IMG/VR virus record: IMGVR_UViG_3300042358_000030
Span: 52,499 to 72,498 of that record
From: an uncultured virus (IMG/VR IMGVR_UViG_3300042358_000030)
Lineage: Duplodnaviria > Heunggongvirae > Uroviricota > Caudoviricetes
Reading direction: 5' to 3' (one strand)
Length of the DNA stretch: 20,000 nt
Shown here: in pieces, positions 2,052 through 20,000 of the stretch
Layout of the letters: every line of letters starts with the position of its first letter
How positions within the stretch are numbered: position 1 is the first letter of the stretch
Program-made: the position numbers and the translations under genes
The notes under the pieces: generated by a model
What the model saw: only the letters and a program-made list of their open reading frames with translations
Database searches by the model: none
What the model was told of the DNA's origin: nothing

Positions 2052-3410
2052 ATGAGACTAACTAATACACTATCAACTTTAATTACAGAACAATCACGTT
2101 TCCAAGTCTTATATGACAAATTGGTGAAACCTTCTGACAAACCAAGAAAACCTGGTGAAAAACCTAAAGGCGCTATGGATTTTGAAACATTAAAGAATAT
2201 TATCTTTGGGGACCCTTCAACAACTGTCCCTCAAGGGTTTGATAAAGAAAGTGCGACTTTTGAAGACATGGGTAAAATACATGTTGGTAAATATGTTCAA
2301 TGGATGTTGAAGAACTTTATTCAACCTAAATTAGAAGATGAAGTAGGTACTCCGGAATATAAGCAAAACGCTAAAGAATATCGACGTTTATTCATAGAAG
2401 ATATGGATAAGTTAAATGTTGATTTACTAAAATTTGAAAGATTTAAAAGTAGATTACCTGTAGGTGAAAGAGACATTAATAAGTATACTCCTCAAACTTT
2501 ATCATTAGCGGTTGATGAATTCAAATTAACTAAAGATTCTAAATCGGCAAAAGAAGAAAGAATTACTAAAGAAAACCCTTATAAATTTGAAGGGTCTACT
2601 ATTGATTTCGTTGGTCCTAATTGGACTATTGTTAAAATAGAGGATAAAACAAAAATTGGTGACGCTGCGGCTGATTACTTTGGTGGTTACTACGATACGA
2701 GAGATGAGTTTGATGAAACTAATTGGTGTACGTCAAACGTTGGTGGTAGTTATTTCTACACTTATATTAAAGACGGTCCATTATATGTTATTTTACCTAA
2801 TAATGCTACGGAATTTGGTAAGAAGACTGGATTACCTAAAGAAAGATATCAATTTCACTTCCCTTCAAACCAATATATGGATAGGAGAGACAGACAAATT
2901 AATTTGGTTGAATTTTTAAATGGTAAAGGTGAAGAACTTAAAGAATATTTTAAACCACAGTTTGCGAAAGGATTGGTTAAAGGTGGTTCAGGTAATGTTG
3001 TGGATATTGCATACCCTGATAATGCTGCCGGTAAATTCATTGCGTTATATGGTTTTGATGAATTATTTGATAGTTTACCGGACACGATTGAAAGATTATT
3101 AATTAGTAATAAATCAAACGAGGATATTGCGTTGGTGGTTCCGGAATCTATTGGAAGATTTAAAAATTTAGAAGCGTTAAAATTAGAGAAGATTTGTAAA
3201 AGTATTCCTGATTCAATCTGTAATTTAAAATTATTAAATTTCTTGGCGTTACCAAATAACAAACAATTAGAATCGTTGCCCGAATGTTTAATGACTTTAC
3301 CTGAATTGGCATTTATTAATTTAAAGGATAGTAATCCGAATGTTAAAATTCCTGAGAAATTAAAAGAACGATTGACAGATGAAGGAATGGGGTTCTATTA
3401 TTTTAACTAA
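2052..3410 (+). CDS. phage protein with central WCT-motif domain and C-terminal leucine-rich repeats
   Basis: TNWCTS...GPLYVI...ERYQFHF block; LRR units VPESIGRFKNLEALKL, IPDSICNLKLLNFLAL and LPECLMTLPELAFINL. Confidence 0.75.
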   Translation: MRLTNTLSTLITEQSRFQVLYDKLVKPSDKPRKPGEKPKGAMDFETLKNIIFGDPSTTVPQGFDKESATFEDMGKIHVGKYVQWMLKNFIQPKLEDEVGTPEYKQNAKEYRRLFIEDMDKLNVDLLKFERFKSRLPVGERDINKYTPQTLSLAVDEFKLTKDSKSAKEERITKENPYKFEGSTIDFVGPNWTIVKIEDKTKIGDAAADYFGGYYDTRDEFDETNWCTSNVGGSYFYTYIKDGPLYVILPNNATEFGKKTGLPKERYQFHFPSNQYMDRRDRQINLVEFLNGKGEELKEYFKPQFAKGLVKGGSGNVVDIAYPDNAAGKFIALYGFDELFDSLPDTIERLLISNKSNEDIALVVPESIGRFKNLEALKLEKICKSIPDSICNLKLLNFLALPNNKQLESLPECLMTLPELAFINLKDSNPNVKIPEKLKERLTDEGMGFYYFN

Positions 3411-3433
3411 TACTAATACTTAAAAATAAACAA

Positions 3434-3724
3434 ATGAAAAATGTTGACGTTGAAATCTACATTAATCAATTTATAACTTTCTTTAACAACAACCCCAATG
3501 ACTTACTTGAGTTAATTGGGGATGTTTTGAAGGATGACTTCTACGACAGAGTAAAACAACAATCTTTAAATAATATTGATAATGGTGAGGATGTTTCCTT
3601 AACTCAAAAACAAATCATATCTATAGTTGTGGCTCTTAAACAATCTCAGAACGATGAGGTTGATATGGATAAGATTAAGTCCATAATTTATCACACAAAA
3701 TTCGCTCACTTTTCCCTTAATTAA
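3434..3724 (+). CDS. hypothetical protein
   Basis: 96 aa ORF, co-oriented with neighbours, A-rich leader. Confidence 0.8.
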   Translation: MKNVDVEIYINQFITFFNNNPNDLLELIGDVLKDDFYDRVKQQSLNNIDNGEDVSLTQKQIISIVVALKQSQNDEVDMDKIKSIIYHTKFAHFSLN

Positions 3725-17519: not shown

Positions 17520-17978
17520 ATGGGAAACAATGTATTATTAGAAGTTAAGAAAAAAAACTTAATGAGAGAGCAAAAAGAAGAGGGTGAAATTGAGGTAGAT
17601 GATACAAAAACCAATTCAGGGTTTAAAGATATGGTGTCTATTTTATTGCATTCACAAACTCAAGTACACATTTTTCATTTACAAACAAAATCATATTCAG
17701 AACATAAGGCTCTACAAGGGTATTATGAAGGGATTGATGCACTTATAGATGGTATTATTGAAAGTTATCAAGGTAAACACGATGTGATTACTGGATACAA
17801 TTCAATCAAAACTGAAGAGTATAAAAGTTCTGAACAAGTTATTAAGTACTTCAAATCATTGGATTCAATGGTTGAAAAAAACAGAAAAAGTGTGAAAGAA
17901 TCATTTCTTCAAAATCAAATTGATACAGTTCAAGAATTAATATATTCCACATTATATAAATTAAGATTCTTAAAATAA
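17520..17978 (+). CDS. ferritin/Dps-like four-helix protein (DUF5856-like)
   Basis: HIFHLQTKSYSEHKALQGYYEGIDALIDGIIESYQG...LQNQIDTVQELIYSTLYKLRFL. Confidence 0.75.
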   Translation: MGNNVLLEVKKKNLMREQKEEGEIEVDDTKTNSGFKDMVSILLHSQTQVHIFHLQTKSYSEHKALQGYYEGIDALIDGIIESYQGKHDVITGYNSIKTEEYKSSEQVIKYFKSLDSMVEKNRKSVKESFLQNQIDTVQELIYSTLYKLRFLK

Positions 17979-18965: not shown

Positions 18966-19301
18966 ATGAATCCGTATCCAAAACCTTTACAATTATTATT
19001 AAAAGAGATATATAAGGAGTTTCCTCACTTGAGGAGACATCCTGAATATCGTTTTTATTATTTACATTACGGATATCCTACAAAGGAGTACTTCCTTGTT
19101 CTAACAAACTTGATACCTGAATCTTACAATGACAATGACCTTGTTTCTTACATAAATCAAATGGCACCTGTTTTTGGTTTTATTGAGGCGGCATTGATGA
19201 AACCGGACGATTTTGAAAAATTTATTTTAGAACCAATAAATGAGAATATAAAAGATTTACGGGGTAGTGAGTATAAAAGTTTTGGATATGAGGTGTGGTA
19301 A
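18966..19301 (+). CDS. hypothetical protein
   Basis: 111 aa ORF downstream of a promoter. Confidence 0.75.
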   Translation: MNPYPKPLQLLLKEIYKEFPHLRRHPEYRFYYLHYGYPTKEYFLVLTNLIPESYNDNDLVSYINQMAPVFGFIEAALMKPDDFEKFILEPINENIKDLRGSEYKSFGYEVW

Positions 19302-19302
19302 T

Positions 19303-19331
19303 TTGACTTCTTAATAAAAAATAATTATACT
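19303..19331 (+). promoter_or_regulatory. sigma70-like promoter (TTGACT-N17-TATACT)
   Basis: -35 at 19303-19308 and -10 at 19326-19331. Confidence 0.65.
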
Positions 19332-19360
19332 ATACAAACAAACAATAAAACAATTTTATT

Positions 19361-19798
19361 ATGAACATAAAGAAAGCTTTAAAAGAGAAAAACCGATTGG
19401 TTAAAGAGATTTTAGATTTACACACTAGAGTGGCGACATACAACTCAGTTGAGGTTGGGAATGTTAGACCATATTCGGCTAAAGAATCAATGGAATTACT
19501 TAACCAAAAAAGTAATGAGTTAGTGGAACTTAAAACTAAAATCCACAGAGCAAATGATTTGGTGTATCAACACATTTTTAGATTGTCGGAATTGAAATCT
19601 ATGATTGCGAGAATTAAAAACTTGGATTGTAATGAGGGTATTGTCCAAGATTACTACTCAAGAAATCGTGAGACACCTGCTGTGAAAGAAACGGAAATCT
19701 CAATTGTTGAGAGAGACGAGATGGTTAAACATATGGAAGGACAAATTGAAGAGATTCAAGATATTTTGGATTACCATAACCAAATCACCGAAATATAG
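19361..19798 (+). CDS. DIP1984-like (DUF6847/'septicolysin'-annotated) coiled-coil protein
   Basis: MNIKKALKEKNRL...LVELKTKIHRAN...IQDILDYHNQITEI matches my recollection of the family pattern MxLxEAL...LxxxIxxxN...IxxxNxxTxI. Confidence 0.65.
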   Translation: MNIKKALKEKNRLVKEILDLHTRVATYNSVEVGNVRPYSAKESMELLNQKSNELVELKTKIHRANDLVYQHIFRLSELKSMIARIKNLDCNEGIVQDYYSRNRETPAVKETEISIVERDEMVKHMEGQIEEIQDILDYHNQITEI

Positions 19799-19987
19799 TT
19801 CAGTGTCCGGAAGGGATATAATGTAATATATATGGACTATTCCGTATTACCTACAAACTCATTATGAAAGTCGTCGACGTTTTGATGATGATGAAGTACT
19901 CAAACCTCAACACTCAGCAGTTCAAAATTAATTTGTCAAAACTTAAAACTCTTTTTGATTTACTTATTGAACTTCCAACCTGACTAT
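19795..19987 (+). ncRNA. candidate structured RNA with 7-nt periodic TCA array
   Basis: Closing stem ATAGTtCAG/CTGACTAT plus GGAAG/CTTCC; hairpins at 19823-19850 and ~19859-19893; periodic array at 19898-19952. A terminator-like arm AAAAAAACCCCTC begins at 19988. Confidence 0.6.
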
Positions 19988-20000
19988 AAAAAAACCCCTC

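Follow-up and report, generated by a model that had tools for sequence, protein, structure and literature searches.

The window analysed here is the whole of a 20 000-nt stretch of DNA, the final 20 kb of a 72.5-kb viral contig (IMG/VR record IMGVR_UViG_3300042358_000030; the window ends where the contig ends) whose close relatives are complete jumbo phage genomes of 270–318 kb. Near its right-hand end lies a gene for a small protein of the DIP1984/DUF6847 family, followed by an RNA element of ∼190–200 nt that begins at the gene's stop codon and runs to ∼19987 (Table 1). We hold with high confidence that this element is a real, conserved and processed non-coding RNA coupled to the DIP1984-family gene. 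The element is present in all 42 + 9 distinct downstream regions shown, and all 49 distinct phage loci examined have the same layout: a 5' arm at the stop codon, a variable hairpin, CUACAA, a GAU-rich stretch, an array of seven-base units, a 3' arm that pairs with the first, and usually a terminator. A first-pass annotation, made from the window's letters alone, had proposed this gene and RNA as a candidate ribonucleoprotein system.

Table 1. Features of the gene and RNA element at the right-hand end of the window
Feature	Position	Strand	Remark
Sigma-70-like promoter candidate TTGACT-N17-TATACT	19303..19331	+	Consensus match, 10/12, upstream of gene
145-aa DIP1984/DUF6847-family gene, phage branch	19361..19798	+	Three long helices and a beta-hairpin (predicted); modelled as antiparallel homodimer
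Processed RNA from metatranscriptome contigs	19792..19984	+	5' boundary 19792–19794; 3' end 19984, C of CCUGAC, then adapter
P1 closing stem, 5' arm	19795..19813	+	Holds the gene's TAG stop codon (19796–19798)
P2 hairpin (inner stem 19830–19847)	19822..19855	+	Sequence varies, place conserved
CUACAAAC motif after P2	19850..19858	+	CTACAA[AC] aligned in most groups
GAU-rich segment CGACGUUUUGAUGAUGAUGAAG	19876..19897	+	Conserved, invariant GA dinucleotides
G-poor single-stranded array, eight units	19900..19956	+	Family consensus nUYAAAn, end UUAAAACUC
P1 closing stem, 3' arm	19972..19987	+	CUUCC A AC CUG ACUAU
Intrinsic terminator, left half	19990..20000	+	Rest lost at contig end

The 145-aa coiled-coil gene of the first-pass annotation is confirmed, and its assignment to DIP1984/DUF6847 stands on profile homology and fold, although the curated cut-offs are not reached: the window protein scores 19.8 bits against PF20935 (E 8e-4; cut-off 27) and 31.6 bits against NF038048 (E 1.5e-7; cut-off 70), and 29 of its 61 relatives match PF20935 at E<1e-3. 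Aligned by hhalign with five bacterial DIP1984 members, each scoring 150–180 bits to PF20935, the phage alignment (A2) gives a probability of 97.4% (E 1.1e-11, 129 columns). The alignment-based AlphaFold2 model of the window protein has a predicted local distance difference test score (pLDDT) of 95.9, and its best Foldseek match is 3kdq_A (template modelling score 0.66/0.64, prob 1.00, E 0.014; the next match has prob 0.25), which a profile search of PDB sequences also returns (E 0.02). The 3kdq entry is a solved Corynebacterium diphtheriae protein of unannotated function and the only structural match of the window protein. By profile and predicted fold, the window protein is a divergent DUF6847/DIP1984 member, in a family with 1074 representatives (50% identity) at E<=1e-3. 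Modelled as a complex with itself it scores 0.45 (best control 0.00), with at least 94% of contacts shared between runs and pLDDT of at least 82; among solved pairs this mark is reached by 20 of 30, among single chains by 1 of 23. The modelling thus supports a homodimer, and since the relative 3kdq is solved, this pass may reflect likeness. An ESM Atlas search confirmed family membership and the label “septicolysin”, nothing more, and neither a search of plasmids with the window protein nor one of genome contigs with P0215 gave a match. One paper was found for DIP1984/DUF6847, and it gives no more than the name of the gene; Burroughs and Aravind 2016 may already list the protein among Rtc neighbours. 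Upstream, the promoter of the first-pass annotation is in its place and is the best of eight sigma-70-like sites in the 1.2 kb scanned (in L003, a relative identical to the window here; window position = L003 + 16360); eight sites against a shuffle mean of 5.5 is not an enrichment.

Linkage of the gene to the RNA is strict among phages. We fetched 21 close and 80 diverse phage loci, and in 33 of 33 representatives the DIP1984-like gene is the sole ORF (open reading frame) common to all; complete phage genomes have one full module copy each, and the jumbo phages that carry the module form a large freshwater clade. R1, the covariance model built on the window group, makes 42 matches in 52 sources, every one on the + strand and after the gene. 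Even at ∼30% protein identity, in the huge phages LR756500 and LR756511, heptad arrays are kept, one of them closing with the same UUAAAACUCUUU. These sequence comparisons support a tight and ancient coupling of protein gene and RNA. Within the GAU-rich segment, alignment columns G81 and A82 are invariant and G89 A90 and G95 A96 T97 nearly so. The first-pass annotation had proposed a candidate new system, and the element is matched by no Rfam family: none of the Rfam 15 covariance models covers it, whether in the window or in the 10 phage and 13 bacterial loci scanned, and permissive thresholds applied to window positions 19200–20000 yield chance-level matches only (e.g. the snoRNA snR69, E 3.3). 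Scanning IMG/VR for the pattern brought in one relative, L029, besides five chance matches that fall within genes.

Could the region instead encode a small protein, from a 39-aa ORF (19864–19983) or in a 32-aa form from internal AUGs? The ORF is open in the window group and its frame is kept in the closest relatives (LMMIKYSNLNTQQFKINLSKLKTLF..), but the first ATG is lost in close relatives, 30 elements show no common frame, start codon or length, L020, L074, L078 and L099 have no start-bearing ORF over the core, and Pfam matches number zero. Because the 39-aa ORF over the array is conserved in neither frame, start codon nor length, we take the region to be non-coding, as first proposed, and find a coding role scarcely credible.

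Variations on the phage layout occur at both ends of the element. What the first-pass annotation described as a probable left terminator arm is genuine, as relatives carry the complete version (AAAAACCCCTCGAGAAATCGGGGGGTTTTT, a 13-pair stem). A GC hairpin with a T-run lies 163–200 nt past the stop codon in 37 of 49 distinct phage loci; the A-run before the hairpin and the U-run after it would let the terminator act on both strands. The GC-hairpin terminator is missing from 12 of the 49 distinct phage elements (loci L086, L087, L090, L091–L096, L098, L104, L105, L112, L116 and L118), and in several of these a T-run directly follows the closing stem, which may therefore itself terminate transcription. 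At the other end, 11 of the 21 close loci have a 63-aa CxxC..CxxC ORF inserted between the DIP1984-like gene and the RNA, and there it is the stop codon of the inserted ORF that opens the 5' arm of the closing stem P1; window-type genomes are without this ORF. This ORF is Zn-ribbon-like, MSGDVEFDECDFCH...CFECGVPKV (L005–L009, L014–L017, L019 and L021; e.g. L005:3440–3631). LR756511 holds a small Lys-rich ORF, MAKGKTPKKEPKKAPKK..., in the corresponding place (L050:∼3480–3570), and LR756500 (L049:3613–3807) has a fragment like a TnpB C-terminus (..NPAYTSQTCSECG..) after its array. On the 215-kb phage contig L029, a full RNA copy (341–540) is accompanied ∼950 nt further on by a partial copy of 48 nt (1489–1536), which comprises the last two heptads and the 3' arm, has a terminator of its own and is preceded by a TATAAT-like box.

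The pairing of the element's two ends, already noted in the first-pass annotation, is predicted in every fold and is accompanied by covariation. Compensatory change occurs in 15 of 15 P1 pairs, a count that leans towards structure because the alignment was fitted to the model; paired cells make up 92.3%, compared with 67.8±1.5 for shuffled and 33–52% for slid partners. An alignment-free test, in which each element's opening 45 nt and closing 50 nt were paired with each other or with the arms of unrelated elements, agrees: cognate arms reach −20.65 kcal/mol and non-cognate arms −11.06±3.33 kcal/mol (n = 508), the cognate partner being best in 18 of 24 elements. In all 24 the arm duplex is stabler on the + strand, which fits a + strand RNA in which G-U pairs matter. 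Of the two internal hairpins first described, P2 is kept in relatives as a hairpin of changing sequence, with arms AUAUGGA/UCCGUAU in the window and AAUAUUGA/UCAAUAUU, GUAUGG/CCAUAC and others elsewhere. The second (∼19859–19893) falls away: its left arm changes without compensation (CTCATTATGAAAG vs CTATTAACAGAG) and it is missing from consensus folds. RNAalifold returned zero pairs on the gapped model alignment A5, and we rejected another RNAalifold helix, GUUUUGAU/GUCAAAAC, which other groups do not keep.

The seven-base array is the conserved hallmark of the element. Heptad units are present at all eight positions listed by the first-pass annotation (TCAAACC, TCAACAC, TCAGCAGT, TCAAAAT, TAATTTG, TCAAAAC, TTAAAAC and TCTTTTT, starting at 19900, 19907, 19914, 19922, 19929, 19936, 19943 and 19950), and the periodicity that it proposed holds across homologues: among 29 diverse elements, T[CT]AA pairs occur at lag 7 60 times as against 3.9±2.0 in 500 dinucleotide shuffles (z = 28). 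Lags 8, 14–16 and 21 are also enriched; other lags are not. A weight matrix of 128 units gives the consensus n-U-[C/U]-A-A-[A]-[A], and phage arrays hold 7–8 heptads. We tried two further accounts of the heptads and rejected both. Mimicry of T-loops or of the anticodon loops of tRNA-Leu has in its favour a likeness over 4 nt and tRNA-Leu(UAA) genes near three loci, which is too weak, and taking the array for a Rho rut site (YC dimers) does not work in LR756511, where arrays are of the UUAAAA type.

Periodic heptads can also serve in DNA: the omega protein of plasmid pSM19035 binds 7-bp heptads. The array might accordingly act as iterons for a DNA-binding protein, in partition, replication or repression, and the 7-bp period, the TCA core and the small dimeric helical protein encoded alongside would all suit that role. 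Such a role would not account for a long-range covarying stem with G-U pairs that works on the + strand only (24/24), for RNA cover that is high and bounded, or for an array that is poor in G solely on the strand that is transcribed, nor does the protein show any known DNA-binding fold; we regard DNA iterons as highly improbable.

Evidence for a discrete transcript comes from lake metatranscriptomes. When the 2-kb L003 stretch was compared with sequence runs, 24 metatranscriptome runs from 21 studies each contained just 6–14% of its words. We examined assembled contigs, not reads, of four lake runs (X1–X4) from four studies; the small word shares in the remaining 20 runs say nothing on habitat. 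Contigs of the four runs span gene and element, and none extends beyond L003 3639, leaving the terminator hairpin unrepresented, although missing contig cover past that point and upstream of the gene is a hint only. By contig depth, a crude measure, the element exceeds the gene at 361 to 22.7 (X3), 58.8 to 4.06 (X4) and 11.8 to 5.6 (X1). The X3 and X4 contigs end at L003 3624 with AGATCGGAAGAGC and then run into Illumina adapter; a stop at this point (window 19984, CCUGAC|UAU in the 3' arm) followed by adapter marks a natural 3' end. The same end point is found in the deepest contigs (517 and 287), which belong to a variant whose array matches that of the L029 phage and which is the most abundant form in X3 and X4. 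In these contigs the element exceeds the gene in depth and has a bounded 3' end, and the RNA is cut out before the terminator.

These data also bear on whether the element is only a cis-acting 3' untranslated region (UTR), an RNase III-type processing or stabilising stem with a terminator, in which the heptads are an accident of A-rich, G-poor composition. It does sit between stop codon and terminator, its stem is ∼17–22 bp, and one X3 contig reaches the end of the Zn-ribbon ORF, indicating co-transcription with the upstream ORF. However, the element outnumbers the mRNA in contigs, dinucleotide-preserving shuffles do not give the periodicity (z 28 in phages, 25 in the bacterial relatives described below), interior motifs are conserved over 30–50% protein identity, and bacteria repeat the layout with different sequence. 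A purely cis-acting role is therefore very unlikely in our estimation.

Two runs yield head-to-tail contigs. The 230-nt contig of X1 reads L003 3433..3631, then T, then 3433..3459; the 225-nt contig of X4 reads L003 3566..3623, then ATT, then 3432..3595. In a k=31 graph their ends overlap by exactly 30 nt (k−1), and the contigs consequently represent closed cycles, of 200 nt in X1 (3433..3631 plus 1 nt) and 195 nt in X4 (3432..3623 plus 3 nt). As none of 49 DNA loci has a tandem copy of the element, these contigs point to end-joined RNA: the RNA may be circular. The alternative is an abundant linear small RNA or sponge derived from the 3' UTR and shielded from exonucleases by its stem, the circles being artefacts of template switching or assembly. 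The adapter-defined 3' end at L003 3624 in two runs speaks for a linear molecule, as do the disagreement between the junction sites and the presence of linear pieces alone in two of the four runs. Against it, the X1 cycle at a mean depth of 11.8 needs repeated junction k-mers, not expected of rare artefacts; cycles with exact k−1 overlap come from two independent studies; the stem holds the ends together in a way ideal for ligation; and an RNA ligase gene adjoins bacterial relatives. We consider a solely linear RNA rather unlikely.

Bacterial relatives, annotated as “septicolysin” or DIP1984, were reached from Acinetobacter through a published primer and then extended to Pseudomonadota and 80 metagenome loci. 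The gene is above cut-off in 5 of 401 sampled genomes and, in a class-level sample, in 1 of 400 genomes, the centre genome itself. By an operational criterion the element follows it in 67 of 72 distinct bacterial downstream regions, at a length of ∼165–200 nt; a bacterial covariance model (R2) then found the five misses, downstream in L161, L162 and L206 and upstream of the gene in L225 and L228 (both 972–1141), where the RNA precedes DIP1984. In order, the bacterial RNA consists of stem a, the loop GGGCGAG, stem b, a hairpin with CACAACA, GAAAAYAUACUGG, GGGCAGCGC, a G-poor half, CACYACC with stem b', and CUGAC with stem a'. Its stem a passes the same arm test (cognate −17.81, non-cognate −6.43±4.15 kcal/mol; cognate best in 34 of 45 elements). 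Here too a 7-nt register is found: [TG]CA recurs at lag 7 89 times, as against 10.8±3.1 (z 25), with lags 14 and 21 also enriched, and in an alignment of 22 bacterial elements A is invariant at 125, 132, 139, 146 and 153 and nearly invariant at 118. Some high-GC variants have a T-arm-like hairpin (L240:592–762, L242:1539–1714 and L239:1680–1866). Two side observations concern what follows the bacterial RNA. A G-tract motif (GGGUGGGAACGGGG, GAGGGUGGGAUAGGGG and similar) that, from its sequence, could form a G-quadruplex lies 10–40 nt past the element in L161, L162, L239, L242 and L244. In L236–L238 and L243 a Phd/YefM-type antitoxin gene (PF02604, 47 bits) comes after the RNA, ∼740–1020 nt past the gene start, recalling the dinJ-yafQ cassette that one report places after Salmonella rtcA (PMC3854526).

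Clustering of the ORFs that flank the bacterial loci brings out two conserved neighbours, identified by Pfam as the RNA ligase RtcB (430 bits) and the cyclase RtcA (257 bits). One or both lie within the 1.2-kb flanks of 24 of 84 bacterial loci, always co-oriented: RtcB in 14 of 58 loci with at least 900 nt upstream, RtcA in 14 of 64 with at least 900 nt downstream. These flanks are short and the genome samples small. The usual order is rtcB – DIP1984 – RNA – rtcA, and two loci have rtcA – DIP1984 – RNA – rtcB. Das and Shuman describe unnamed ORFs between rtcB and rtcA, together with an operon variant that holds Ro and a non-coding RNA (PMC3854526); Hughes et al. describe an rsr-yrlBA-rtcBA operon induced by damaged tRNA (PMC7790460). 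L239 has YrlA/YrlB-like matches as well, at 314–755, upstream of the DIP1984 gene and separate from the element. On the phage side, an Rnl2-family ligase domain is found in three of five genomes, two of these above cut-off. In the 257-kb phage G004 the Rnl2-family RNA ligase gene (C1:133328–133897) lies ∼4–7 kb from the DIP1984–RNA module at ∼126–130 kb.

We lean slightly towards reading the pair as a two-part gene and RNA module of the RNA-damage and repair sphere, with ligation and an array platform, comparable to Ro60 and its Y RNA in rsr-yrlBA-rtcBA operons. The closing stem would offer both RNA ends to an RNA ligase, either host RtcB or a phage enzyme of Rnl2 type, and ligation would yield either a circle that resists nucleases or a nick that can be sealed. 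In the heptad array several copies of one partner would find a periodic, single-stranded platform to bind; that partner could be the dimeric DIP1984-like protein or a host factor that binds or cuts RNA. In an infected cell the phage might employ the module against attacks on RNA, by buffering, sensing or decoying them. For this repair and ligation mechanism taken as a whole we judge the chances to be evenly balanced. A bolder generalisation is doubtful: DIP1984/DUF6847 proteins and their adjoining RNAs would form a widespread and so far undescribed class of RNA-repair ribonucleoproteins in which the RNA is excised and sealed into a circle by a ligase of RtcB or Rnl type, the array, read at one adenosine per 7 nt, binds either a row of protein dimers or an RNA-targeting enzyme of the host, and jumbo phages have captured the system against host attack on tRNA or rRNA.

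Several observations weigh against the repair module. In about three quarters of the bacterial loci the 1.2-kb flanks contain no rtc gene, and a co-oriented rtcB/rtcA neighbourhood belongs to the bacterial homologues only, not to phages; RtcB was found in none of five phage genomes (G001–G005), and RtcA and Ro/TROVE in none of five (G000–G004), so that the link to repair comes from the bacterial homologues only. R2 in turn finds no phage element (best phage match E 1.3); phage and bacterial RNAs are thus alike in architecture, with homology of the RNAs unproven. The protein could bind RNA, a putative activity in a family that is not basic (median isoelectric point (pI) 6.85; window protein pI 6.0, net charge −3). 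Taken alone, the window element folds with an energy that stands out only modestly (z = −2.15), contig depth reflects expression poorly, and RNA libraries can contain DNA. As for the circle, its signal comes from contigs, X2 and X3 give linear pieces only, the two junctions differ (L003 3623 + ATT as against 3631 + T) and both have extra letters, and reverse-transcriptase template switching on an abundant linear RNA would give the same junctions.

The first-pass annotation had favoured a different function, in which the upstream protein forms an oligomer and each subunit reads one heptad, as TRAP does with NAG repeats, within an autoregulatory, scaffolding or RNA-antitoxin unit. HutP would be a further parallel, and the model is independent of repair. 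Strict gene–RNA linkage agrees with this model, as do the invariant position per 7 nt in bacteria and the nUYAAAn unit of phages, the homodimer as modelled, and a patchy spread like that of mobile elements (5/401 and 1/400 genomes, plasmid contexts). Yet the protein is neutral to acidic, its multimer has been modelled as a dimer only, no toxin-like fold was found (its sole structural match, 3kdq, being unannotated in function), the RNA, unlike ToxI, does not consist of processed units in tandem, and both the rtcB/rtcA neighbourhood and the head-to-tail junctions are left unexplained. As a full account this model is rather unlikely; its TRAP-like picture of array recognition is a live sub-hypothesis, and the RNA-antitoxin or defence idea has no direct support.

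The module would give a first functional handle on a DUF with a solved structure that is mislabelled “septicolysin” on Acinetobacter plasmids, and would add a new, abundant and easily recognised RNA class for lake metatranscriptomes and jumbo-phage genomes. As a recognition code, one invariant base in each unit of a strict 7-nt register is unusual. Should the repair module prove true, Rtc operons, whose natural substrates are still debated, would have a second kind of non-coding RNA partner besides Y RNA; should the circle be true, it would be a natural ligase-made circular RNA in a bacterial virus. If the generalised class is also true, it would supply the first natural protein-partnered circular RNA of phages and a Ro-independent second RNA arm of Rtc operons.

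The other genes of the window are typical jumbo-phage auxiliaries (DnaJ, two DNA methylases, thioredoxin, glutaredoxin, NUDIX, a DHH protein and HNH), and the whole 20 kb holds zero tRNA genes and zero Rfam RNAs at gathering score. Two genes upstream of the module, at 17520–17978, is a DUF5856 protein (75 bits) with a homologue similarly spaced in L101, L102 and L107; this arrangement is not clade-wide. Elsewhere, tRNA genes lie within 1.5 kb of the module in 15 of 60 phage loci, and three phage lineages have it among tRNA genes. In one of these, represented by L091 (also L092–L096, L104 and L112), the module sits inside a tRNA cluster (tRNAs at 231–1446, tRNA-Met at 3122–3194) and adjoins freshwater-1 RNA (823–885, 72.4 bits) and GOLLD RNA (2642–3076, 242.8 bits), bringing three non-coding RNA classes within 3 kb.

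Among known systems, the TRAP-trp leader and HutP-hut mRNA pairs, in which oligomeric proteins read spaced NAG triplets, resemble the module in having short motifs evenly spaced in unpaired RNA, which suggests one subunit per repeat. The motif here is instead UYAA, or YCAY in which one A is invariant, the protein has an unrelated fold, and the array lies inside a closed, excised RNA after the gene rather than in a terminator-controlling leader. ToxI consists of tandem 36-nt units upstream of an endoribonuclease toxin. Like ToxI/ToxN, the module combines a protein with a repetitive processed non-coding RNA on mobile elements and phages, but its units are of 7 nt, inside one ∼190-nt RNA downstream of a helical protein without a nuclease fold. 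We accordingly rejected a type III toxin–antitoxin RNA, which would call for ∼36–45 nt repeats, RNA-before-gene order and a nuclease-like structural match. GOLLD, ROOL and freshwater-1 RNAs likewise occur in freshwater phages near tRNA clusters, whereas the new element is much smaller and of different architecture. Archaeal circular C/D-box small RNAs and other RNA circles made by ligases are, as one report presents them, small structured RNAs whose paired termini are joined by RNA ligase (PMC9014305); here the setting is bacterial or phage, no C/D-box family matches, and circularity would follow from contigs only.

Ro60 and Y RNA offer a parallel that includes operon context. In both systems a protein gene adjoins a non-coding RNA of ∼100–200 nt whose 5' and 3' ends form a long stem, and the known system (PMC3854526, PMC7790460), like the bacterial DIP1984 modules, adjoins rtcB and rtcA. 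Phages have both, some jumbo phages having Ro/TROVE with a tRNA-like partner according to a review (PMC7824862), and some bacterial variants of the new RNA contain the T-arm-like hairpin mentioned above. The differences are nonetheless clear: the DIP1984 protein is, by its modelled structure, a small helical dimer of the 3kdq fold and not a TROVE ring, Y RNA is without the heptad array of the new RNA, and here the gene precedes the RNA, whose stem starts at the stop codon. The YrlA (RF02553), YrlB (RF02565) and Y_RNA models give no match at E<=10 in window positions 19200–20000. Moreover, L239 holds both kinds of RNA in a single locus, so the new RNA and Y RNA are distinct.

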